The notes beneath the pieces were generated by a model. The model had not been told where the DNA came from. It made no database searches and saw only the letters and a program-made list of their open reading frames with translations. From NCBI GenBank assembly GCA_965209025.1, contig OZ242375.1, positions 258,302 to 322,301 on the forward strand: 64,000 bases of DNA, written 5' to 3'. The translations under genes and the position numbers were made by a program. Positions 23,928 to 35,963 of the stretch are shown here, one piece after another. This DNA comes from Acidimicrobiia bacterium. Its GTDB lineage: Bacteria > Actinomycetota > Acidimicrobiia > Spongiisociales > ZC4RG35. Positions within the stretch are counted from its first letter, which is position 1. The number at the start of each line of letters is the position of its first letter.

Positions 23928-24700
23928 CGGCTTTGGGAATAGACATAGGAGGATCGGGAGTCAAAGGCAATCTGGTGGACACCGCCACCGGAGCGCTCCT
24001 GTCCGAACGCTTTCGCATACCCACTCCCCGCTCGGGGTCCACCGAGGCGGTGGGCGAGGTGGTGGCGGAGATAGCCGAGCACTTCCGGCAAGAGAGCGGG
24101 CATGAAACCCTCCCGGTGGGGTGCGGGTTTCCCGGGGTGATCAGATCGGGCGTCGTAAGCGCCGCCACCCACCTGGACAAGGCCTGGCTGGGCGCCGACG
24201 TGGTCGCCATTCTCTCCGGGGCGGTCGGGAGCCCGGTCACCGTTCTCAACGATGCGGATGCGGCCGGGGTGGCCGAGATCACCTTCGGGTCGGCCAAGGA
24301 TCGGAGCGGCACGATCCTGATGATCACCCTCGGCACCGGGATAGGGAGCGGGATGTTCCGGGACGGCCGGCTGGTCCCCAATTTCGAACTGGGCATGCTG
24401 GAACTGGGCGGTCATCACCCCATCGAGGACCGGGTGGCCTACCGCGTATTCAAGCAGGGGGAGTTGAGTTGGAAGAAGTGGGCCAGACGGTTGAACCGCT
24501 ACCTACGGCATGTCAACGCGCTCTTCGCTCCGGACCTGATAGTTCTCGGGGGAGGAGGGGTGAACAAGTGGTCCCGCTTCGGCCACCGCCTGGATGTGCC
24601 GGTGGATGTGGCCCCCGCCCACTTCGGGAACCATGCCGGCATCGTCGGCGCCGCCCTGGCCGCGGTGAACCCGGGCGCCCTGATGGGGGATCCCGCCTAA
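23924..24700 (+). CDS. ppgK: ROK-family / polyphosphate glucokinase
   Basis: MTALGIDIGGSGVK sugar-kinase N-terminus and ROK-like core. GTG overlaps the rarA stop. Confidence 0.75.
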   Translation: MTALGIDIGGSGVKGNLVDTATGALLSERFRIPTPRSGSTEAVGEVVAEIAEHFRQESGHETLPVGCGFPGVIRSGVVSAATHLDKAWLGADVVAILSGAVGSPVTVLNDADAAGVAEITFGSAKDRSGTILMITLGTGIGSGMFRDGRLVPNFELGMLELGGHHPIEDRVAYRVFKQGELSWKKWARRLNRYLRHVNALFAPDLIVLGGGGVNKWSRFGHRLDVPVDVAPAHFGNHAGIVGAALAAVNPGALMGDPA

Positions 24701-24858
24701 GAGGACCTGGCCCGGTGTGGGTAGGGCTGGCGTACCAGTCATCACGTCCTTGTCCGTTTGGATCACCGGTTCTGAAACACTTTGGATACGGGTCTCCCCA
24801 CCACTCCAGAGGCTTTGGTTGGTCTCCGGGGTCGGTGCTGGGGTTCCGATCCGTGTGT

Positions 24859-25962
24859 TTAGCTGCTGTGGATGGGGGTGGGTAGGGTTTGGTCACCGCA
24901 GTACAGGGTTTGGTCACCGCGGTACGGGGATTGGGGTGGTTCGTTTGTCCAGTATTGGGCCGATGATCCTTTGGGGTAGTCCGCTCCGGGAATGGGTGGT
25001 GGTAACACGGTGGAGTTCTCCGAGCCATCGTAGACCGCACCTACCGCCTTGTAGTAGGTGCGGAGTTCATTGGCGTCGGTGACCAGCAACGGCAGTTTGC
25101 CTATCCCGATCCTCCCTCCGGTGACCGCGGTGCGGTTCTCTGCCGCCGCGCGTACTTGCTGTTCCAACTCGGCGAGGGGCATATTCAACCGGGCACGCGC
25201 TTCCGGAGTCCGAGCCAACCGTATGTTCTGGGAGACAGCTTTGGGTGGGTTGTCATCAGTTTTCTGCACAAACCACACGGCCAGTTCCAACTCGGTGGCC
25301 CAGGCTTCCACGGTGAGAGTGGGGATTCCAAGAAACAGTACGAGTTCTTTTCCTGCGTAGACTTCCTCGGCTCTGCTGGCCGGGAAATTCAACGTGTTGT
25401 CCACCCATGCATCCTCGCCTCCCTGCTGTTCTATAAAGCATTCCCGATACCCTCCATCGGTGGAAAGAAGTAACGACCGGCGATGTAGCGACGCGGTGAG
25501 GACCGGGGGTCCTTCTCCCACCAGATACTCATTTACCCTGACCTCCGCAAAACAATGCACATGCACGTGAGGCCTAGCAATTGAGTGGACACTCTCGCTT
25601 GTAAAGTTCGGCGGTTTGGCCTGGTAGTCGTCACACCGGAACGTGTCCGGTCGCACCGTTCCTCGGATAACTATATGCGGCATCAGTAGAGGTGATGTAA
25701 GATGCACCGGGCCCCATCCCCCTAGTAGTAGTTCGTTGGGGGTTGGCAGAGGATCCGGGAGACGTTCAGACAATTTCAACGAACTATCCGGTTCCCCTGG
25801 TTCGCAGGGATCTATGTCGCTTCCATCGATAGGAACACAGGGAGGGATCACTTGCTCAAGATGTGATTTCAATGTGGGTGTAGCAGCCGAAAACCAACAA
25901 CCGATTAGCCCCACAGCCAAGACCAGTCCCAGGGTTGCCAGTGTTGTTTTGGTTCTGGTCAT
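24859..25962 (-). CDS. Island paralog 1: secreted (possibly lipo-) protein of an unassigned family, 367 aa
   Basis: Signal peptide MTRTKTTLATLGLVLAVGLIGC. Shares with paralogs 2-4 the conserved blocks IPPC.P..G...DPC, VHCF..VRVNEYL.G.GPP, LFLGIPTLTVEAW and LPLLVTDAN.L..YY.AVGAVYD. C-terminus carries a YRGDQTL/YCGDQTL 7-aa tandem repeat. Confidence 0.7.
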   Translation of the reverse strand: MTRTKTTLATLGLVLAVGLIGCWFSAATPTLKSHLEQVIPPCVPIDGSDIDPCEPGEPDSSLKLSERLPDPLPTPNELLLGGWGPVHLTSPLLMPHIVIRGTVRPDTFRCDDYQAKPPNFTSESVHSIARPHVHVHCFAEVRVNEYLVGEGPPVLTASLHRRSLLLSTDGGYRECFIEQQGGEDAWVDNTLNFPASRAEEVYAGKELVLFLGIPTLTVEAWATELELAVWFVQKTDDNPPKAVSQNIRLARTPEARARLNMPLAELEQQVRAAAENRTAVTGGRIGIGKLPLLVTDANELRTYYKAVGAVYDGSENSTVLPPPIPGADYPKGSSAQYWTNEPPQSPYRGDQTLYCGDQTLPTPIHSS

Positions 25963-26095
25963 TCTGGTTCTCTTTGGCTTTGGATGGTCTCCTAGGTTCA
26001 GGGGTCTAGGGGTTCCGAGCCGGGTGGTTGGTCGTCGGCTCCGGGTATGGGTGGTGGTTTGGCGGGTGTTAGGGTGGGGTCGTCGTAGACAGCAT
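25921..26095. repeat. Paralog junction cassette, copy 1 (tail-coding, stop, about 40-nt spacer, start, signal-peptide coding)
   Basis: The tctggttctctttg(g/c)ctttggatggtctcc(t/a/g)aggttc(a/g)gg block and flanking sequence recur at the 5' ends of paralogs 1 and 3 and of the fragment. Confidence 0.6.
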
Positions 26096-26189
26096 CCGTT
26101 GGTGGTGAGTTAGCGGGCGCGGTGCCGCAGCTTTGCCCGACAGCAAGGACCAGTCCCAGAGTCACCAGTGTGGTTTTGGTTCTGGTCAT
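25998..26189 (-). pseudogene. Internally deleted remnant of a family member: signal peptide fused directly to the Pro-rich C-terminal tail (63 aa)
   Basis: The N-terminus MTRTKTTLVTLGLVLAVGQSCGTAPANSPPTDAV is near-identical to the paralog 3 N-terminus. It is followed immediately by YDDPTLTPAKPPPIPGADDQPPGSEP, which matches the paralog C-terminal tails. The whole core is missing. Confidence 0.55.
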
Positions 26190-26330
26190 TCTGGTTCTCT
26201 TTGCCTTTGGATGGTCTCCAAGGTTCGGGCGTTTAGGGGTTACGAGCCGGGTGGTTGGTCGTCTTCACCGGGGGTGGGTGGGGTTCCGTTCGGGGTTTCG
26301 TTTTCTCCGGTGTTGGCGGGCGGGCCGGGG
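26131..26330. repeat. Paralog junction cassette, copy 2
   Basis: Near-identical to 25921-26095 and 28655-28960 by eye. Confidence 0.6.
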
Positions 26331-27475
26331 AGTTGATCGGCACCAGGGACCGGTGGGGGTAGGACGGTGGAGTTTTCCGAACCGTCGTAGACCGCTCCGA
26401 CCGCTCCATAAAAGTCCCGCAGTTTGTTGGCGTCGGTTACCAGCATCGGAAGATCAGATGCCATCCCGATCCGCCCTCCGGTGACGGCAACACGGTTAGT
26501 GGCTGCCGCTTTCACTTGTCGTTCTAGTTCTGCCAATGTCAGGTTCATCCGGGCACGCTGCTCAGAAGTACGCGCCAGCCTTATGTTCCGTTCAACAACT
26601 CTCGGCGGGTTATTACCAGTTTGCTGCACAAACCACACGGCCATTAGCAACTCCGTCTCCCATGCTTCCACAGTGAGCGTGGGGATTCCAAGAAACAGCA
26701 CAAGTTCTTTACCTTCGTAAACCGCGCCTGTTCGGCGAGCAGGAAAGTCGAGGGCATTGTCCACCCATTGGTCCTCGCCCCCGTGCAGAGCTATAAACGA
26801 ATCACGATAGCCTCCATCAGTGGGAAGGTGTACTATTTCCCGGTGCAGCGACACAGTCAATTCTGGAGGTCCTGTCCCTACCAGATACTCGCTTACACGG
26901 ATTTGAGCGAAACAATGAACATGGACGATTAAGTCATGATATGGATGCAGTTCGGCAGCGTAGCTCGCGACCTTTAGTGGATAGTCTTCGCATCTGGTTG
27001 TACCAGGTTGCGGTGTGCCTCTGATGACTACGTGCGGCAGCAACAACGGGTCCGCAGTGCCTTGGGGACTCCACTTTCCTAATAGCAGGTCAGCCATGGT
27101 TGGCAGTGGGTCTGGCAGACCCTCAGAGGAGCCTTCCGCGGCGGCTTTCCGGACTCTGGTCGGTTCTCCAGGAACGCAGGGATCAGCGTCGCTGCCGTCT
27201 ATGGGTGTGCAGGGGGGAATGACTTCTTCCAGATATGCAGGAGGTGTTTCTTCTCGAGCCTGACCTGCCGTCACGTCTCTATAAGTATTGGCATCTTGCG
27301 TTCGCGCAGTTGTGGCTGTTGGTTCTTGAAGTGTGGTTACAGGGGTGGGAACGGTTACGTCGGGTTGGTCCGTGGTAGGTCCTGTTCCTGTAGCGGTTGT
27401 TTTGCAGGCTTGGATAAAAACCAGTGTTGCCAATAGCCACGGCAACGCTCTCCTCTTAGTTGTTGCACCTTTCAT
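26240..27475 (-). CDS. Island paralog 2: secreted protein of the same family, about 411 aa
   Basis: Start chosen at ATG 27475 (AGGAAG SD with 6-nt spacer). ATG 27493 is the alternative. Signal peptide ...LPWLLATLVFIQAC, Thr/Pro linker, conserved family blocks. Pro-rich tail PPPVPGADQLPGPPANTGENETPNGTPPTPGEDDQPPGS. Confidence 0.7.
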   Translation of the reverse strand: MKGATTKRRALPWLLATLVFIQACKTTATGTGPTTDQPDVTVPTPVTTLQEPTATTARTQDANTYRDVTAGQAREETPPAYLEEVIPPCTPIDGSDADPCVPGEPTRVRKAAAEGSSEGLPDPLPTMADLLLGKWSPQGTADPLLLPHVVIRGTPQPGTTRCEDYPLKVASYAAELHPYHDLIVHVHCFAQIRVSEYLVGTGPPELTVSLHREIVHLPTDGGYRDSFIALHGGEDQWVDNALDFPARRTGAVYEGKELVLFLGIPTLTVEAWETELLMAVWFVQQTGNNPPRVVERNIRLARTSEQRARMNLTLAELERQVKAAATNRVAVTGGRIGMASDLPMLVTDANKLRDFYGAVGAVYDGSENSTVLPPPVPGADQLPGPPANTGENETPNGTPPTPGEDDQPPGS

Positions 27476-27568
27476 GGCATTCTTCCTTGTCATCCGTTTA
27501 TCCGCAATGGATGAATCTTGGGCTCTACCTTCCCATGGGGTTCGAGGAGGCCGAAGGATGGCGGTGTG

Positions 27569-28723
27569 TCAGGGTGTGGGAGGAGGTGTTTGGTCATCGT
27601 CTCCGGGCACAGGGGGTTGGTTGTCATCTCCGGGGGTGGGTGGGGTTCCGTTCGGGGTCTCTTCTTCGCCGGTGTTGGCTGGTGGTTCTTCGGGGTCTTC
27701 TGCTCCGGGTACGGGTGGTGGTTTGGCGGGTGTTTGGGCGGGGTCGTCGTAGACGGCGCCGATGGCTCCGTAGTAGGTACTGAGCTGGTTGGCGTCGGTG
27801 ATGAGCAGGGGCAGGTTGGGGTCGGTTCCGACCCGTCCGCCGGTGTTCGCCTTTCGGGTGGCGTCCGCTTGGGTGATCTTGGTTCGGAAGTCGGTTAAGG
27901 AGAAGTCCAATAGTGCTAGGTTTTCGGGTGTCTGGGGGTATTCGTGTTTGTCGGGGGCGATCACCCTTATTACACCGCCTACTTGCTGCACATCCCAGAA
28001 AAACGTCATTTCCCAAGCTTCCATCCGAACGCTGAAGCCAGCGGAGAGGAACAGGACTCCTTCGACACCTTCGTATGTGTCGATGACCTGTTCGTCCAGG
28101 GGCTGGGAGTGTCCAGGATTCGACGGCCAATTCAAACCTGTGATGACGCTCAGTTGGGGAGGTCCTGTTCCCAGCAGGTATTCGTTCACCCGCACATCGG
28201 AGAAACAAAAGAGATATTCCCATCCTGCAAAAGCCTTTCGGATGCGTTCCTCCAAATACGTTGGCAGCGTTGTGGCGTGGATCTCACACCTGGTTGTGTC
28301 TGGCAGTACAGTGCCACGGATAAGAATGTGCGTGGAGCTAGTAGCTACCAGGTCCCAGTAGTTCAAGACTTCGTGGAGTGGGGGAGCGTGAACCTTTGTT
28401 TCTTCTGATAGCATTACACCGTCAGCGGGTTCGATGGAGGGTGGTGGTCCGGTTGCGCATGGGTCTCGGTTGGTTCCGGCCACCGGGGTGCACGGAGGAA
28501 TCGTTTCCTCCAGGTATGTGAGATTCGCCTCTTCTAGTGCAGGTGCGGTAGTTGTAGGGGTAGCCGTGGTAGTTGTGGTTGACCGTGGCTCTTTAGAGGG
28601 ACTGTGAGTGGTGGTTGTGACAACAGCATCCGTTGGTGGTGAGTTAGCGGGCGCGGTGCCGCAGCTTTGTCCGACAACAAGGACCAGTCCCAGAGTCACC
28701 AGTGTGGTTCTTGTTCTGGTCAT
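27569..28723 (-). CDS. Island paralog 3: secreted protein of the same family, about 384 aa
   Basis: Start at ATG 28723 (MTRTRTTLVTLGLVLVVGQSCG). The ORF-track start at 28825 would overlap the paralog 4 tail. Thr-rich linker, conserved blocks, Pro-rich tail. Confidence 0.7.
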   Translation of the reverse strand: MTRTRTTLVTLGLVLVVGQSCGTAPANSPPTDAVVTTTTHSPSKEPRSTTTTTATPTTTAPALEEANLTYLEETIPPCTPVAGTNRDPCATGPPPSIEPADGVMLSEETKVHAPPLHEVLNYWDLVATSSTHILIRGTVLPDTTRCEIHATTLPTYLEERIRKAFAGWEYLFCFSDVRVNEYLLGTGPPQLSVITGLNWPSNPGHSQPLDEQVIDTYEGVEGVLFLSAGFSVRMEAWEMTFFWDVQQVGGVIRVIAPDKHEYPQTPENLALLDFSLTDFRTKITQADATRKANTGGRVGTDPNLPLLITDANQLSTYYGAIGAVYDDPAQTPAKPPPVPGAEDPEEPPANTGEEETPNGTPPTPGDDNQPPVPGDDDQTPPPTP

Positions 28724-28960
28724 TCTGGTTCTCTTTGCCTTTGGATGGTCTCCGAGGTTCGGGCGTTTAGGGTTCCGAGCCGGGTGGTTCATCATCGTCA
28801 CCGGGGACGGGTGGGGTTTGATCATCGCCGGGGGTGGGTGGGGTTCCGTTCGGAGTCTCGTTTTCGCCGGTGTTGGCGGGTGGGTTTTCGGGGTCTTCGG
28901 CTCCGGGGACTGGTGGTGGTTTGGCGGGTGTTTGGGTGGGGTCGTCGTAGACGGCGCCGA
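28655..28960. repeat. Paralog junction cassette, copy 3 (paralog 4 tail / paralog 3 start)
   Basis: Same conserved block. The Pro-rich tail coding sequence of paralog 3 (27590-27760) is also shared. Confidence 0.6.
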
Positions 28961-29939
28961 TGGCTCCGTAGTGGGTACTGAGTTTGTTGGCGTCGGTGAT
29001 CAGCAGGGGCAGGTTTGGGTCGGTGCCGACCCGCCCTCCGGTGTTCGCCGTTCGGGTGGCTGCTGCTTGGGTGATCTTGGTCCGGAAGTCTTCAAGGGTG
29101 TTGTCCAACAGTGCAAGGTTCTCTGTTGTTTGGGGGTATTCGTGTTTGTCGGGAGCGATCACCCTTGTTACACCGCCGACTTGCTGCACGTCCCAGAAGT
29201 ACACCATTTCCCAGGCTTCAAGTTGAAGGTTGAAACCCGTGGAGAGAAAGAGGATCCCTTCGACGCCCTCGTATGTGTCGATGACCTGTTCGTCCAGAGG
29301 CGGCCCCAGACGGTACTCAGGACCCAGCGGCCGATCCCAATTCGTAATCACGCTCAGTTGGGGAGGTCCTGTTCCCAGCAGGTACTCGTTTACCCGCACA
29401 TCGGAGAAACAATAGAGATGCTCCCATCCGGCAAAACGCTTTCGGTCAAAATCATCCCAATACGTTGGCAGAGTTAAGAGGAAGATCTGACACCTGGTCG
29501 TGTCTGGCAGTACAGTGCCCCGCAGAACTATATGAACCGACCTAGCAGGATCCCTGTCTCTGTAATTCAAGACTTCGTGGAGTGGGGGAGCGTAAACCTT
29601 TGCTGCTTCTGATATCATTACACCATCATCGGGCTCGATGGAGGGTGGTGTTCCGGCAGCGCAGGGGTCTCGGTTTGTTCCGGCTACCGGGGTGCATGGA
29701 GGAATCGTTTCCTCTAGATATGCAGCGTTCGCTTCCTCTTTTGCGACCCTTGACGGAGTTGCGGTTGTTGTAGGCGCAGCCGTGATGGTTGTGGTTGGCC
29801 GCAACTCTAATGAAGGGTTGTGAGTGGTGGTCGTGACAACAGCATCCGTTGGCGGTGAGTTAGCGGGTGCGGTGCCGCAGGCTTGCGCGATGACCCATAC
29901 CAAACTTGTGACAACTAGCAGGGTTTTGGGGGTGTTCAT
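28767..29939 (-). CDS. Island paralog 4: secreted protein of the same family, about 390 aa
   Basis: Start at ATG 29939 (MNTPKTLLVVTSLVWVIAQAC, with an AXA-type cleavage site), AAGGA 8 nt upstream, 29 nt after the giant gene's stop. About 80% identical to paralog 3. Confidence 0.7.
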   Translation of the reverse strand: MNTPKTLLVVTSLVWVIAQACGTAPANSPPTDAVVTTTTHNPSLELRPTTTITAAPTTTATPSRVAKEEANAAYLEETIPPCTPVAGTNRDPCAAGTPPSIEPDDGVMISEAAKVYAPPLHEVLNYRDRDPARSVHIVLRGTVLPDTTRCQIFLLTLPTYWDDFDRKRFAGWEHLYCFSDVRVNEYLLGTGPPQLSVITNWDRPLGPEYRLGPPLDEQVIDTYEGVEGILFLSTGFNLQLEAWEMVYFWDVQQVGGVTRVIAPDKHEYPQTTENLALLDNTLEDFRTKITQAAATRTANTGGRVGTDPNLPLLITDANKLSTHYGAIGAVYDDPTQTPAKPPPVPGAEDPENPPANTGENETPNGTPPTPGDDQTPPVPGDDDEPPGSEP

Positions 29940-29968
29940 CTTCTTTGTCCTTTCGTTCTCCCCTGGTG

Positions 29969-32900
29969 TTATGGTGTGTTGTCTGATTGGTAGAGTGCTT
30001 TGAGGGCGACGATGTCCATCGGTTGTGGTGCACATATGCGATTCGTTGTAGGGGCGGTGTCAGTTTTCTTTCTCATGATGCTTTCGTTGGGGTTTGTCGT
30101 GGCGTGTCCCAGACCCCAGATGTGACCCGCTTCGTGAGTGGCAACTTCGAGGCGCAGAGAGCAGTTGTTTCCTCCTGCCCATGTGGCATCCGTGGGTCCT
30201 TTCACGAAAAACATGGCGTATTTGGTGTATCCGCTTACATTGGGATCGAACGGCGGTACGACAGCTAATGCTGTGTCCGAGAGTTTCGGGTAGTACACCT
30301 TTACCTGTGTGCTGGTTTGGAGTGAGACTCTTCTGGTGTCTTCTTCAAGGCAGTTGTCGCCGGATTCTTGGGTGATTACGGATGAGCTGATGTTTCGGCC
30401 GTCTGGTGTGGTGAAGCCTTGCATGGCTGTGGTCCATTTGGTGAATCCTTGTTTGATTTCGTTGATCCATGTTTGGGTCATATCTTTTGTGCATATTTTG
30501 TAGGCGTAGTGGAGGGGTGACAGATCGTGACGGTAGGGTATCCCGGCTACGCTAAACCCGCCGCTGGTTGATGGTTCCTCCGCAGTTGTAAAAACGAGAA
30601 TGGTTTCGCTGGACCAGGGCGATTGGTCTGCTGCGTTGCCGGATCGCACTTGGACGGCGTAAAGGCGGCTGATCCGCAGCCCGGTGATCGCATAAGATGT
30701 GCTGGTGATCTTGTCGGATACCGGGGTCCAGGTGCCGCTGCAGGTCGGGGGATCGGCGCACGTTTTGTATCGGACCTTGTAGTACTCGGCGGTGGTGGCC
30801 GGAGCGTCGGTGGTGGACACGGGGTTCCATGTCATCTTGATCTGGGCTTCGTCGGGTCGTAGATGAACGTGTGCGGTTGGGCTGTGTCCGTTGGCGCGTA
30901 GTCCTGTGGGCGTGGGTGGAGCGCCTGTGACTGTCCAGGTGGTGACGGGTTCGGACCATTGGGATTGGTGGTGTTGGTAGCCGGTGGTGGTGTCGTTGGC
31001 GCGGATGTGGATCCGGTAGTTTCGGCCGATGGTGAGGGTGCTGTGGGTTCCGGTGTTTTTGACTATTTTGACCGTGAACACTCCTTGGGAGTCGGGTGCG
31101 ATTTCCAGTTGGTTTGTGCCGGTGCAGTCGTTCCCGGTGCCGTCTCCTACGCAGTAGGCCTGTTGGGTGGTTACCGTGTCGGGGCAGTCGCTGCCTGTTT
31201 CGACGCAGTATGTGATGTCGTAGCCTTGTGCGTGGGCTACTTGGTTCCATTTGATGTTCAACGCGGGGGTTTGTGGGTGGGCCAGGTTGAACCCGTCGGC
31301 GACTACTCCGGTGGGTTTTGCCAGTAGTAGGGATGTTTCGATGGTGTGGGATCCGAGGTTGGTGGTGGTGGTGCTGGTGCGGCTGATCTCGATCCGGTAG
31401 TCAACGGATCCGGTGGTGAGCCCGGGTGGGTTCCATTCGACGAGGTTGCCGTGCACGGTGGAGGTTTGGGAGGCAAGGTCGGTGGTGGTTCCGACGGTTC
31501 CTGCTGTTATTTCTGCCCAGGTGAGGACGAACGGCACGCTTGAGGAGACCTCGAGTTTGATCTTGTCGGGTGTTACGTCTCTAAGGGTGTATCGCTTGGC
31601 GTAGACGGTTTCGGTGGTGCTGGTGCGATGGACGGCCTTGCAGTCGGTGGTCCAGTCGTGTCTGGTGGTTGTTTGTGGCAGGTCCGTGGTGCAGGCGTCT
31701 GTGGAGGGCGGAACAGTGGTCGTAGTAGTAGTGGTGGTGGTGGTCGTAGTGGTGGTGGTGGTGGAGCGGGTGGTTTGTTTGGTGACGGTTCGTTCGCAGG
31801 TGGGCGGGTTGGTGGTTTTGTTCAGGGTGTATTCGGTTGGGCAGGACCAAACGGGATCGATTGTGGTCGGTCGGGTGGTTTGTTTGGTTACGGTCCTTTT
31901 GCAGGTGGGTGGATCGGTGGTTTCGTCCAAGGTGTAGCCGGTTCCGCAGGACCATTGGGTTTCGGTTGTGGTCGGTTGGGTGGTTTCTCGGGTTACTGGG
32001 CGGGAGCAGGTGGGCGAGAGCCCGGATTCGCCTTCCACACCACCTCCGCTGGCTCCTGATTGGGGACCGATGCCTTTTTGGTATCCGGGCGGGCAGGAAT
32101 AGGTTGTTTGGATGGTGGCGTTGCGCGTGGTTTCTCGGGTGATTGTGCGGGAGCAGGTGGGTGAGAGACCCGATTCACCCTCGACGCCGCCGCTGTTGCC
32201 GGTGGGTCCTGTTTGGCCGCCGATGCCTTTTTGGTATCCGGGGGGACAGGAGAAGGTGGTTTGGGTGGTGGCGTTGCGCGTGGTTTCTCGGGTGATTGTG
32301 CGGGAGCACGTGGGCGAGAGCCCGGATTCGCCTTGGGCGCCACCGTCGCCGCTGCTGCCGGTGGGTCCTGTTTGGCTGCCGAGGCCTTTTTGGTATCCGG
32401 GGGGACAGGTCCAGTCTGTCCGTGATGAAGCGTTGCGGGTGGTGTCGCGAGTGATGGTGCGGGAGCAGGTGGGTGAGAGCCCGGATTCGCCTTCCACGCC
32501 GCCGTCGTCGTTGTTGTTTCCGCTGCTGCCGCCGGCTTGTGATTGGCCGCCGAGGCCTTTTTGGTATCCGTCGGGGCAGGTGAAAGTTGTCCGGATTGAA
32601 GCGGTAAGAGTGGTGGAACCCGACCGCCTGTAAGAACAGATGGACTCGTTTCGGCTGCTGTACGAGTAAGTGGCCGGTGCCGACGGGCACGAATACGATG
32701 TGGTGGCGGTGCGGGTGGTGCTGGTCGACCGCGTGTAAGTACAAGTAGTTCCGCTGCGGCTGCTGTACGTATAGGTGGCCGGCGCCGACGGGCACGAATA
32801 CGATGTGGTGGCGGTGCGGGTGGTGCTGGTCGACCGCGTGTAAGTACAAGTAGTTCCGCTGCGGCTGCTGTACGAATAGGTGGAAGGCGCCGACGGGCAG

Positions 32901-34471
32901 GAGTAGAGGGTGGTGGCGGTGCGGGTGGTGCTGGTCGATCGGGTGTAGGTGCAGGTGGTGCCGCTGCGGCTGCTGTACGAATAGGTGGAAGGCGCCGACG
33001 GGCACGAATATGACGTTCGGGCGGTGCGGGTGGTGGAACCCGACCGCGTGTAATAACACGTCGACCCGACCCGATGACTATACGAAAACGTAGAAGGAGC
33101 ACCGGGGCAGTTATACCCCGCAGTGGGGTGTGCCACAGCCCTGCGGGTAGTGGTCGTGGATCGGGTGTACGTACAGGTGGTGCCGTTTCGGCTGCTGTAG
33201 GAGTAGGTAGATGGCGCCGACGGGCACGAATATGAGGTGGTGGCGGTGCGGGTGGTGGAACCCGACCGCGTGTAATAACAGGTGGAACCACTCCTCCTGC
33301 TATAGGTGAAGGTCCCCAACGAACCGGGACACGAATACGACGTGTTAGCGGTGCGGGTAGTGGAACTCGACCGCGTGTACGTACAAGTGGACCCGCTCCG
33401 GCTGCTGTACGAATACGTAGAAGGAGCAGAGGGGCACGAGTAGGAGGTGTTGGCGGTGCGGGTGGTGGACCCCGACCTCGTGTACGTGCAAGTGGACCCG
33501 CTTCGGCTGCTGTACGAGAACGTGGAAGGCGCAGAAGGGCACGAATACGATGTGGTGGCGGTGCGGGTGGTGCTGGTCGACCGGGTGTAAGTGCAGGTTC
33601 TGCCGCTCCTGCTGCTGTAGGTGTAGGTGGCGGGCGCAGCCGGACACGTGTACACCGTCGTCCCGGTGGCGTCGATCGTCTCGGTGTCCTCATACGTGTA
33701 ATGACAGACAGACCCGTCTCGTCGGACGAACGCCAATCCGTCCTCGGTCGGACACGTGTACACCGTCGTTCCGGTGGCGTCGATCGTCTCGGTGTCCTCG
33801 TAGGTGTAGTGACAGACAGACCCGTCTCGTCGGACGAACGTCAGTCCGTCCTCGGTGGGACAGGTGTACACGGTGGTGCCGGTGGCGTCGATCGTTTCGG
33901 TGTCCTCGTAGGTGTAGTGGCAGACAGACCCGTCCCGCCGAACAAATGTCAGGGTGGCTTCGGTCGGACACGAGTAGGTCGTGGTTCCGGTGGCGTCGAT
34001 GGTTTCTGTGTCCTCGTAGGTGTAGTGGCAGACAGACCCGTCTCGTCGGACGAACGTGTACCCCGCAGGCGACGGACACTCCTCAACGGTCGACGAAGTC
34101 GCTGCTGTGCTTTCGACGCTCTCGTAGGTGTAATGACACGTTGACCCGTCCTTCCGGACCAGCGTGTACCCCGCAGGCGACGGGCACACCTCTTCGGTCG
34201 TGCCCGTGTCAGTAGCAGGTACGCTCTCAACCTCCTCGTAGGTGTAATGACACGTCGAACCGTCCCGCCGGACAAACGTCAGCCCCTCCGGCATCGGGCA
34301 GGCACCGTTGGAACCAGCCTCCAAACTGACCCACCCATTGTCCTCCAGTCCCATCCCGCCGACCGCCAACGGCACAACCGACAACAAAGCCCCCAACGCC
34401 ACAACGGCCACCAGTCCCGACCTTCCCCTCCTCGACCTTCCCCCCCTCGCTCTCCGGTAGGGACTGGCCAT
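29969..34471 (-). CDS. Giant secreted multi-repeat protein (1500 aa) with C-terminal metzincin-type zinc metalloprotease domain
   Basis: ATG 34471 is preceded by AGGAGG with a 5-nt spacer. Arg-rich signal peptide. Three families of Cys-containing tandem repeats, a run of about 17 Thr, beta-rich modules, and HEAGHIWGLGH (encoded at 30104-30136, minus strand) followed by a SIM Met-turn. Confidence 0.85.
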   Translation of the reverse strand: MASPYRRARGGRSRRGRSGLVAVVALGALLSVVPLAVGGMGLEDNGWVSLEAGSNGACPMPEGLTFVRRDGSTCHYTYEEVESVPATDTGTTEEVCPSPAGYTLVRKDGSTCHYTYESVESTAATSSTVEECPSPAGYTFVRRDGSVCHYTYEDTETIDATGTTTYSCPTEATLTFVRRDGSVCHYTYEDTETIDATGTTVYTCPTEDGLTFVRRDGSVCHYTYEDTETIDATGTTVYTCPTEDGLAFVRRDGSVCHYTYEDTETIDATGTTVYTCPAAPATYTYSSRSGRTCTYTRSTSTTRTATTSYSCPSAPSTFSYSSRSGSTCTYTRSGSTTRTANTSYSCPSAPSTYSYSSRSGSTCTYTRSSSTTRTANTSYSCPGSLGTFTYSRRSGSTCYYTRSGSTTRTATTSYSCPSAPSTYSYSSRNGTTCTYTRSTTTTRRAVAHPTAGYNCPGAPSTFSYSHRVGSTCYYTRSGSTTRTARTSYSCPSAPSTYSYSSRSGTTCTYTRSTSTTRTATTLYSCPSAPSTYSYSSRSGTTCTYTRSTSTTRTATTSYSCPSAPATYTYSSRSGTTCTYTRSTSTTRTATTSYSCPSAPATYSYSSRNESICSYRRSGSTTLTASIRTTFTCPDGYQKGLGGQSQAGGSSGNNNDDGGVEGESGLSPTCSRTITRDTTRNASSRTDWTCPPGYQKGLGSQTGPTGSSGDGGAQGESGLSPTCSRTITRETTRNATTQTTFSCPPGYQKGIGGQTGPTGNSGGVEGESGLSPTCSRTITRETTRNATIQTTYSCPPGYQKGIGPQSGASGGGVEGESGLSPTCSRPVTRETTQPTTTETQWSCGTGYTLDETTDPPTCKRTVTKQTTRPTTIDPVWSCPTEYTLNKTTNPPTCERTVTKQTTRSTTTTTTTTTTTTTTTTVPPSTDACTTDLPQTTTRHDWTTDCKAVHRTSTTETVYAKRYTLRDVTPDKIKLEVSSSVPFVLTWAEITAGTVGTTTDLASQTSTVHGNLVEWNPPGLTTGSVDYRIEISRTSTTTTNLGSHTIETSLLLAKPTGVVADGFNLAHPQTPALNIKWNQVAHAQGYDITYCVETGSDCPDTVTTQQAYCVGDGTGNDCTGTNQLEIAPDSQGVFTVKIVKNTGTHSTLTIGRNYRIHIRANDTTTGYQHHQSQWSEPVTTWTVTGAPPTPTGLRANGHSPTAHVHLRPDEAQIKMTWNPVSTTDAPATTAEYYKVRYKTCADPPTCSGTWTPVSDKITSTSYAITGLRISRLYAVQVRSGNAADQSPWSSETILVFTTAEEPSTSGGFSVAGIPYRHDLSPLHYAYKICTKDMTQTWINEIKQGFTKWTTAMQGFTTPDGRNISSSVITQESGDNCLEEDTRRVSLQTSTQVKVYYPKLSDTALAVVPPFDPNVSGYTKYAMFFVKGPTDATWAGGNNCSLRLEVATHEAGHIWGLGHATTNPNESIMRKKTDTAPTTNRICAPQPMDIVALKALYQSDNTP
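31990..32600. repeat. Intragenic tandem repeat family C (about 156 nt / 52 aa, 4 copies)
   Basis: Protein unit: CPPGYQKGIGGQTGPTGNSGGVEGESGLSPTCSRTITRETTRNATIQTTYS. DNA copies are more than 90% identical. Confidence 0.75.
32600..33640. repeat. Intragenic tandem repeat family B (about 105 nt / 35 aa, roughly 10 copies)
   Basis: Protein unit: SYSCPSAPSTYSYSSRSGTTCTYTRSTSTTRTATT. Near-identical DNA copies (the ggtggcggtgcgggtggtgctggtcgaccgcgtgtaagtacaagtagttcc block recurs). Confidence 0.8.
33640..34300. repeat. Intragenic tandem repeat family A (about 108 nt / 36 aa, roughly 8 copies)
   Basis: Protein unit: CPTEDGLTFVRRDGSVCHYTYEDTETIDATGTTVYT. Several copies are nucleotide-identical. Confidence 0.8.
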
Positions 34472-34637
34472 AAATGCCTCCTACCACCCACCCTAAACAC
34501 CATCCGCACACTATGCACACAGAGTTTTCATAAAAATCCCAATCATCTTCACTAAAATATCAACAATTCGACCCGATCACTCCCTATATGGCCACCAAGT
34601 GGGAGCGACTCCCGTCCGGGCCCCGAGCGGGGGTGGG
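34472..34637 (-). promoter_or_regulatory. AT-rich putative promoter/leader of the giant gene, with a consensus Shine-Dalgarno
   Basis: Contains gagttttcataaaaatcccaatcatcttcactaaaatatcaacaattcg. This is the most AT-rich stretch in the window. AGGAGG lies 5 nt before the ATG. Confidence 0.4.
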
Positions 34638-35963
34638 TCAGATGTCGTCGGTCTGGCGGTTAATGAAGGCAGAGAAGCGACTCACCTGGTCGGGGGGGAG
34701 CCTGACTACCAAATCCATTCCTTCGGGGCCCTCGCTCGAGGAGAGAACTTCTCCTGTGCGGTGGAGAGCCGCTAACGCATCTCCTCGGGCGTAGGGCACC
34801 CGCACCGAGATGGTCGAGGAGCGGGCGTTCAGCCATTGGGTGAGGGTCTCCATCAGTTTCTCGGTTCCCTCTCCGGTGAGCGCCGACACGGCGACTGCGG
34901 TCTCGGAGGCTCCTAAGAGGCGCCGGACCACTGTGGAAGACGCCTCATCGATCTTGTTCACCACGATGATGGTCGGCACCGAGTCCGCCCCGATCTCGGC
35001 CAGGACCTCCCGGACCGCCTCGATTTGGCCTTCCGGATCGGATTCGGCGGCGTTCACGAGATGGAGTATCAGGTCGGCGTCGCGGACCTCCTCCAGAGTG
35101 GACTGGAAAGCTTCGACCAGGCGGTGGGGGAGTCTCCGCACGAATCCCACGGTGTCGGCCATGAGCATCTCCCGGCCTCCTGGTAGCCGGAGGCGGCGGA
35201 TGGTGGGATCCAGGGTGGTGAACAGGCGGTCTTCGGTGAGCACCCCGGCGCCGGTCAGCTGGTTTAGGAGGGTCGACTTGCCGGCGTTGGTGTAACCGAC
35301 CAGGGCGATGATGGGCACTGCGGCCTGGACGCGGGATTGGCGCCGGGTTTGGTTCTGCCGCCTAAGGGCGGCGAGGTCCTTCTCGAGGGAGGTGATCCTC
35401 TGGCGGATGCGGCGGCGGTCGCTCTCGAGGCGGGTCTCTCCCGGTCCCCGGGTTCCGATCCCTCCCGCCTGCTGGGAAAGCTCCTCGCCCGTGCCGCGAA
35501 GACGGGGCAGCCGGTAGCGCAGCAGCGCAAGTTCCACCTGGAGCGCTCCCTCCCGGGAGTTGGCGTGCTGGGCGAAGATGTCGAGGATCACCGCTTCGCG
35601 GTCCACGACGTCACATTCGAACAGTCCCTGCAGGTTGCGTTGCTGTGCGGGGGTGAGGGCATTGTCGAACACCACCACGTCGATGTCCTCTGCTTTGGTG
35701 ATGTCGGCCACTGACGCTGCCTGGCCCTTGCCGATGAACAGCCCCGGATCGGGAGCGGGCCGGTTGAACACCTCCCGGTCGACCGGCTCGGACCCGGCGG
35801 TGTCGGTCAGCAGAGCCAACTCTTCGAGGGACTGTTCCACCTCGAGAGATGAGTTGCGCCCCAAACGCACTCCCACCAGGAAGGCTCTCTGGCGGGGTAC
35901 CTCGAGGTCTGCAACCGTGGCGGTGAGCCGGCGGCGTTCCCGGCCGAGATGTTGATAAGTCAT
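34638..35963 (-). CDS. hflX: GTPase HflX
   Basis: HflX N-terminal domain plus G-domain GYTNAGKSTLLN, DTVGF, NKID. Confidence 0.9.
   Translation of the reverse strand: MTYQHLGRERRRLTATVADLEVPRQRAFLVGVRLGRNSSLEVEQSLEELALLTDTAGSEPVDREVFNRPAPDPGLFIGKGQAASVADITKAEDIDVVVFDNALTPAQQRNLQGLFECDVVDREAVILDIFAQHANSREGALQVELALLRYRLPRLRGTGEELSQQAGGIGTRGPGETRLESDRRRIRQRITSLEKDLAALRRQNQTRRQSRVQAAVPIIALVGYTNAGKSTLLNQLTGAGVLTEDRLFTTLDPTIRRLRLPGGREMLMADTVGFVRRLPHRLVEAFQSTLEEVRDADLILHLVNAAESDPEGQIEAVREVLAEIGADSVPTIIVVNKIDEASSTVVRRLLGASETAVAVSALTGEGTEKLMETLTQWLNARSSTISVRVPYARGDALAALHRTGEVLSSSEGPEGMDLVVRLPPDQVSRFSAFINRQTDDI

Follow-up and report, generated by a model that had tools for sequence, protein, structure and literature searches.

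A 64,000-nucleotide (nt) stretch of DNA from an Acidimicrobiia bacterium (GCA_965209025.1, OZ242375.1, positions 258,302–322,301 of the forward strand; hereafter the window, whose coordinates are used throughout) contains a minus-strand tandem array of four paralogous genes, designated A, B, C and D, and a short open reading frame (ORF) of 63 amino acids (aa), designated F. The genes follow one another in the transcription order D, C, B, F, A, with a gene for a 1500-aa repeat protein ahead of D. F is probably a genuine remnant, devoid of function, of a fifth array unit belonging to the C/D subtype. An earlier, sequence-only reading of this DNA had proposed a fifth family member without its core. 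This remains the best reading, with the additions that the lost gene would have been of the C/D type and that the Thr/Pro linker disappeared together with the whole folded core (about 0.87 kb). The same reading had also considered homologous recombination between the conserved 5' and 3' segments, which finds no support at the junction, where the exact homology amounts to only 2 nt (4/5 in GCYGT). Because of this 2-nt junction, the deletion is regarded as illegitimate and microhomology-mediated, not as a product of homologous recombination.

The full-length array proteins share a common architecture, in which a signal-peptide head and a Thr/Pro linker precede a folded core, followed by a Pro-rich acidic tail, and are predicted to be secreted or lipid-anchored. 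They fall into two subtypes, C and D (77% aa identity; type 2) and A and B (64% aa identity; type 1), with about 35–40% identity between subtypes. F translates as MTRTKTTLVTLGLVLAVGQSCGTAPANSPPTDAVYDDPTLTPAKPPPIPGADDQPPGSEPLDP, and the ORF list holds it with exactly the coordinates and translation that had been reported before. Its parts were delimited as follows.

25998–26189, minus strand: fragment ORF F, 63 aa with an ATG start, a signal-peptide head fused to a Pro-rich tail (from the ORF list and DNA matches to the paralogs).
26089–26189, minus strand: head segment of F (nt 1–101), a paralog C-type sequence that codes for the signal peptide, the conserved Cys and GTAPANSPPTDAV.
26089–26090, minus strand: deletion junction 1 of F, in frame, where GCT-GT and GCC-GT share an exact 2-nt microhomology (GT).
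26030–26093, minus strand: tail-proximal segment of F with the C/D-type sequence AVYDDPTLTPAKPPPIPGAD (64 nt, 90.6% identity to C and D).
26031–26036 (about), minus strand: junction 2 of F, an in-frame loss of PPANTGENETPNGTPPTPG between two CCCGGNGNNGA(C) repeats.

DNA matches confirmed that the first part of F resembles the N-terminus of C (paralog 3 of the earlier reading) and the second part the C-termini of the paralogs. Over 168 nt that comprise the 5' part of F and 66 nt upstream of it, identity to the 5' region of C reaches 95.8% (E = 5e-76). The coding part of the head agrees with C at 97 of 102 nt and includes a 47-nt exact run (26089–26135 = 28623–28669) that terminates at the breakpoint. 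On the other side of the breakpoint, nt 97–160 of F are 90.6% identical to nt 967–1030 of C and nt 985–1048 of D (the AVYDDP.QTPAKPPP.PGA segment), and a separate alignment of the tail-proximal segment gave 52/57 identical nt. Both matches are far above chance. Head and tail are thus of the C/D subtype, yet F is positioned between B and A, two genes of the A/B subtype.

The exact match on the head side (26089–26135) and that on the tail side (26072–26090, to the D tail) share the two nucleotides GT. The codons at junction 1 read GAT GCT GT|C TAC in F, whereas the 5' end of C has GAT GCT GTT GTC and the C/D tail opens with GGC GCC GTC TAC, so that the pentamers GCT-GT and GCC-GT (GCYGT, 4/5 nt) represent Ala-Val codons in the same phase in both partners. 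The previously described junction at a DAV / GAVYDD microhomology is therefore real and in phase, although it is very short, with 2 nt exact or 4/5 nt when one mismatch is allowed. The earlier reading did not mention a second in-frame gap, which lies inside the F tail. Here, the conserved PPANTGENETPNGTPPTPG, present in B, C, D and the consensus of 67 family sequences, is gone, leaving a GAC-GAC junction between CCCGGNGNNGA repeats; the loss amounts to about 75–90 nt between PG(A/E)(E/D)D repeats. In addition, the stop codon has moved 9 nt (three codons) downstream, into sequence that is intergenic after B and D. B ends with TCG TAA and D with GAA CCC TAA, whereas F continues with CTA GAC CCC TGA and thereby gains the residues LDP.

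When compared with the family (A–D and about 100 database homologues), F retains a signal peptide ending in the conserved [AG]Q[AS]C motif (MTRTKTTLVTLGLVLAVGQSC), but none of the invariant or nearly invariant core columns of the family alignment, among them C78, C89, R145, C146 and C173. The core motifs YLE..IPPC..DPC, RGT..PDTTRC, CF.DVRVNEYL.G.GPP, TGGR.G and TDAN are all missing. Within the family tail (GAVYD..PPP.PGA..PP..TG....P.PG), the proximal part AVYDDPTLTPAKPPPIPGA and the extreme end DDQPPGSEP are kept, while PPANTGENETPNGTPPTPG in the middle is gone. What remains is an export signal, the conserved Cys, 13 linker residues and 29 tail residues. F thus matches intact paralogs at the nucleotide level to either side of a gap from which essential parts have been lost. 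Since the conserved core residues are all gone, it cannot perform the NTR/TIMP-like function of the family.

The surroundings of F are those of an ordinary array unit. Blocks between adjacent genes are named after their two neighbours, a block X-Y comprising the distal tail of X, the stop codon, the spacer and the head of Y. Two such blocks flank F.

26089–26285, minus strand: B-F junction block, with the B distal tail, stop, intergenic spacer and F head.
25908–26059, minus strand: F-A junction block, with the F distal tail, stop, spacer and A head (nt 1–55).

Both show the regular succession of distal tail, stop, a spacer of about 35–50 nt and head; because this arrangement is found on either side, F sits in a normal unit slot, in which a full-length ancestral gene would once have stood. 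The B-F block is 93.4% identical over 197 nt to the D-C block (28623–28818). The F-A block is 87.5% identical over 152 nt to the B-F block, at an offset of 227 nt, and 85.5% identical to the D-C block.

A plausible sequence of events would start with expansion of the array through unequal recombination, while gene conversion would have kept the tail-intergenic-head blocks alike. A full-length type-2 unit between B and A would then have lost nt ~102–970, comprising the linker and the whole core, by a RecA-independent, microhomology-mediated deletion of the slippage or end-joining type at the in-phase Ala-Val GCYGT / GT. Slippage between repeats encoding PGxxD may have removed a further ~75–90 nt of the tail, and a 1-nt difference would have shifted the stop codon three codons downstream. 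F itself is most likely neutral debris. The decay of extra copies in related arrays, with a frameshifted second copy at locus L086 and a degraded protease gene at locus L001, supports this interpretation.

Several observations weigh against it. No relative carries the array, so a full-length ancestor at the position of F is inferred rather than observed. Both deletions are in frame and the ORF stays open up to its new stop, an outcome expected in about 1 of 9 cases with random breakpoints; the preservation of the frame through both events could hint at selection for a translated product, which leaves a small residual chance of function. The F head still shows 95–96% identity to the C head, as against 82% for the diverged cores, and this similarity could reflect a recent remnant, conversion or constraint. 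Finally, the argument against misassembly, which appears unlikely, was made from the sequence alone.

The alternative that survives best, although it is unlikely, is that F has been kept as a functional small secreted or lipid-anchored Pro-rich peptide that acts as a decoy, spacer or regulator for a metzincin / TIMP-like system. The ORF is intact after two rearrangements, with its signal peptide and conserved Cys retained. F, C and A agree in their start context, a stretch of 24 nt around the ATG being identical in all three. As the upstream sequence and start context are the same as in C and A, F could still be translated, in which case the product would be a 63-aa pre-peptide and a mature Pro-rich peptide of ~43 aa. 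Against a function stands the failure to find F elsewhere. A search of 5.8 billion clustered proteins yielded no homologue at E ≤ 1, a weak negative given that only one candidate shared query words. An exact look-up in the protein collection returned D and B, while F, C and A were absent. JGI metagenomes contained no match (0) to the degenerate head-to-tail junction PPTDAVYDDP and none (0) to the 24-nt module around the ATG, and no junction like that of F was seen in nine other loci of the family. The missing F-like ORF in relatives says little, because none of them has the island that carries the array. Furthermore, 4–5 of the 8 differences between the F tail and C or D are non-synonymous, as opposed to 1 of 4 between C and D, a pattern that, in these small numbers, would fit relaxed constraint.

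It is quite unlikely that F arose de novo, with no gene ever lost, by a ~227-nt tandem duplication of an inter-gene junction block comprising a tail end, spacer and head. If it began in one tail and ended in the following head, such a duplication would yield exactly a head-plus-tail mini-ORF, and the B-F and F-A blocks do form a direct repeat with a 227-nt period. However, only 152 of the 227 nt are repeated. Nucleotides 56–130 of F (QSCGTAPANSPPTDAV and AVYDDPTLTPAK) have no counterpart either in the YDGSENSTVLPPP-type tail of B or in A downstream of nt 55, and are instead 91–100% identical to C and D. As this segment is unmatched in B and A, the duplication would require extra conversion events in both neighbours. 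We give still less credence to the speculative view that the tail-spacer-head blocks are portable recombination modules used to shuffle, amplify and delete TIMP/NTR-like cores beside a metzincin, and that F is a retained 'empty cassette', namely a translated Pro-rich lipopeptide or a landing pad seeding unequal exchange, rather than inert debris. The least probable explanation is an assembly artefact, in which a full-length fifth gene, or C and D reads, would have been collapsed or chimerically joined over their repeated modules. The region harbours three copies of a 150–200-nt module with 84–96% identity, which can mislead assemblers, but a chimera would be equal to existing copies, whereas F differs from C at 5/102 head positions and from C or D at 8/66 tail positions, with Q->L, V->I and E->D found in no other copy. 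At the junction only 2 nt are shared, so that no k-mer could bridge it, no exact repeat spans it, and the longest exact match of F to any other copy is 47 nt; the 2.6-Mb contig moreover suggests a long-read assembly. Given that F has substitutions of its own and no repeat at its junction, a collapse is unlikely.

F had further been taken as direct evidence that the array is recombinationally active. The activity itself holds, on the basis of the mosaic structure of the array, whereas F alone, being a single deletion, is not direct evidence of it. The array and its surroundings comprise the following features.

24859–25962, minus strand: paralog A, 367 aa, type 1, with a module-type head and no Thr/Pro linker.
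26240–27493, minus strand: paralog B, 417 aa, with a type 1 core and a D-like distal tail.
27569–28723, minus strand: paralog C, 384 aa from MTRTRTT, type 2, to which the F head is most closely related.
28767–29939, minus strand: paralog D, 390 aa from MNTPK, type 2, with an identical database entry (P0001).
29969–34471, minus strand: first gene of the island, for a secreted 1500-aa repeat protein whose C-terminal domain is of the metzincin type (HEAGHIWGLGH; from the translation and a weak Peptidase_M10 match).
24690–34650 (about), no strand: strain-specific island of ~10 kb, inserted between ROK and hflX, with a G+C content of 55–62% as opposed to 65–68% in the flanks.

The B core is 70% identical to the A core at the DNA level and has no blastn match to D, while the distal tail of B is 93% identical to that of D. 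This D-like tail occupies positions 26240–26324 (PPANTGENETPNGTPPTPG...), and the type-1 gene of L001 likewise carries a type-2 tail. The tails of B and of the L001 type-1 gene suggest concerted evolution across subtypes. A begins with a C-like head (nt 1–55) that passes almost directly into the core region and lacks the ~45-aa Thr/Pro linker of B and the L001 type-1 gene. A is itself chimeric, with a C/F-type head at 25908–25962, a switch into 24859–25907 and, where the switch occurs, a new lipobox-like LIGC motif. Nine codons distinguish the C head from the A head, and at these F agrees with A at four and with C at five, in an interleaved pattern. Overall, the junction blocks (tail, intergenic spacer and head) are 84–93% identical, compared with 63–82% for the gene cores. 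Global alignments that collapsed to a few bases, namely those of the A-C and B-C cores and of the C-B block with other blocks, were not used.

Two dedicated recombination systems were considered and dismissed. A diversity-generating retroelement or invertible element was rejected because the ORF listing of the island contains no reverse transcriptase or recombinase gene; only direct repeats were searched, without an inverted-repeat search. Programmed cassette recombination, as in antigenic variation, was rejected because every full copy has its own ATG and signal peptide and the array is missing from six related loci.

In all six of these loci (L002–L004 and L007–L009; 6/6), ROK abuts hflX, with ~55–400 nt in between, and the ~10-kb island is absent. 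The ROK proteins are 77–93% and the HflX proteins 85–93% identical to those encoded in the window, whose housekeeping genes beside the array point to a lineage of Acidimicrobiia metagenome-assembled genomes. The array was found in no other assembly, and with the island absent, the six related loci contain no full-length gene at the position of F. The nearest homologues of C are 57–69% identical. No integrase or tRNA gene appears in the ORF listing of the island, for which no tRNA scan or search for target-site duplications was run. A promoter and terminator scan detected nothing beyond shuffled expectation. The closest database relatives among the Acidimicrobiia carrying the family are uncultured metagenome-assembled genomes, which we take to be sponge-associated from their accession and isolate names.

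Family members in other loci vary in number, integrity and position. At L086 (5005–6134), a second family copy is split by a frameshift into two gene calls of 117 and 158 aa. At L001 (6238–6937), the metzincin gene is reduced to frameshifted N-terminal fragments, with four partner genes intact. L091 (4004–8191) contains adjacent genes of 377 and 336 aa without a Pfam match, the second of which is the family member P0018; an Indigoidine_A gene flanks the pair, as a 128-aa fragment on one side and as a 303-aa copy on the other. L090, which is syntenic to L091, has an M10 gene and one family member at a different spot. Judged by these comparisons, the family appears to move within otherwise syntenic genomes.

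Scans of A–D and F against Pfam and NCBIfam identified no family at E ≤ 0.1, returning only sub-threshold noise (Muskelin_N, MXAN_0125). Neither TIMP (PF00965) nor NTR (PF01759) was matched by the sequences of the parent family, and a search of PDB sequences with the family profile gave nothing. The AlphaFold models are confident over the core, with a predicted local distance difference test (pLDDT) score of 82.8 for C and of 88.5 for the core of A. In Foldseek, TIMP-2 ranked first without reaching significance (E = 0.09). The models of the parent family, as opposed to F, display an OB-type five-stranded barrel with flanking helices that can be superposed on NTR modules, and the core is accordingly predicted to be NTR/TIMP-like. 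The motif PPANTGE in the tail was considered as a class-E sortase (LAXTG-like) signal and rejected, because neither a hydrophobic segment nor a basic tail follows it.

The 1500-aa protein carries the metzincin motif HEAGHIWGLGH at its C-terminus and has a weak match to Peptidase_M10. It also contains several families of Cys-containing ~35-aa repeats, such as CPTE..LTFVRRDGSVCHYTYEDTETIDATGTT and SYSCPSAPSTYSYSSRSGTTCTYTRSTSTTRTATT, and a run of 16 Thr; homologues with 52–72% identity are encoded at L086, L088 and L089. A family member lies directly downstream of a secreted M10/FN3 protein in the window and at L086, L087, L088, L089 and L090. L001 has the same order, with the protease gene degraded, whereas no such pair occurs at L091 and L092. 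Analogy with the pair described next suggests that the paralogs may serve the protease encoded beside them as partners or inhibitors, a lead rather than demonstrated membership.

The nearest counterpart described for such a pairing is Mtz-Tim of Listeria monocytogenes, in which a secreted metzincin is followed by a TIMP-like lipoprotein that is cleaved by the metzincin (PMC8235301). The parent family, as distinct from F, shares with this system a metzincin gene followed by a gene for a signal-peptide/Cys protein and a fold that resembles TIMP/NTR without sequence similarity (PMC8235301). By contrast, the genes described here come from Acidimicrobiia of sponge-type metagenomes, and their products, at ~380 aa, are much larger and contain a Thr/Pro linker, an additional helical/beta region and a Pro-rich tail. 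The partner gene is present in four copies and a remnant, no CI/Cro switch accompanies it, and the likeness to Tim is one of gene order and predicted fold. The eukaryotic NTR/TIMP modules (TIMP-1/-2/-3, agrin NtA, PCOLCE NTR and complement C345C) differ in that they have six core Cys, compared with four conserved core Cys in the parent family, which has no Pfam TIMP/NTR match and whose Foldseek hit was not significant. Eukaryotic TIMPs need a free N-terminal Cys to chelate zinc, whereas the first conserved Cys of the parent family (in IPPC-TP) is internal and would thus have to be unmasked by proteolysis.

With regard to its own structure, F resembles the internal-deletion pseudogenes of bacterial tandem arrays. 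Like these, it has homology to both ends of its intact neighbours with the middle missing and a junction homology in the range of 2–5 nt. It likewise lies within a variable island of lower G+C content, whose sister arrays contain frameshifted or degraded copies. It differs in that the frame is kept through two deletions, with an intact start context and a formally complete signal-peptide ORF.

Antigenic-variation systems make use of silent or partial cassettes, such as the pilS, vls and msp2 pseudogene cassettes. The array is similar to these in its conserved 5' and 3' flanks around divergent cores and in the segmental exchange seen in the mosaic heads and tails. It differs in that all full copies have start codons and signal peptides of their own, which leaves no single expression site. 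Neither a recombinase nor a dedicated site was seen in it, F lacks a variable core, and the array is absent from relatives.

In annotation, F is better called a pseudogene or fragment than a small secreted protein. It is an ordinary by-product of turnover in a strain-specific, fast-changing gene array and by itself of little weight, as the record of one microhomology-mediated deletion in a lineage-specific array. More useful is its context, an unannotated family whose partner gene has been amplified to four copies and one remnant in a 10-kb island. If the TIMP-like reading is true, this would be the second bacterial metzincin / TIMP-like pairing after Listeria Mtz-Tim, and the array would exemplify how rapidly the copy number of a putative protease partner can change in a symbiont.
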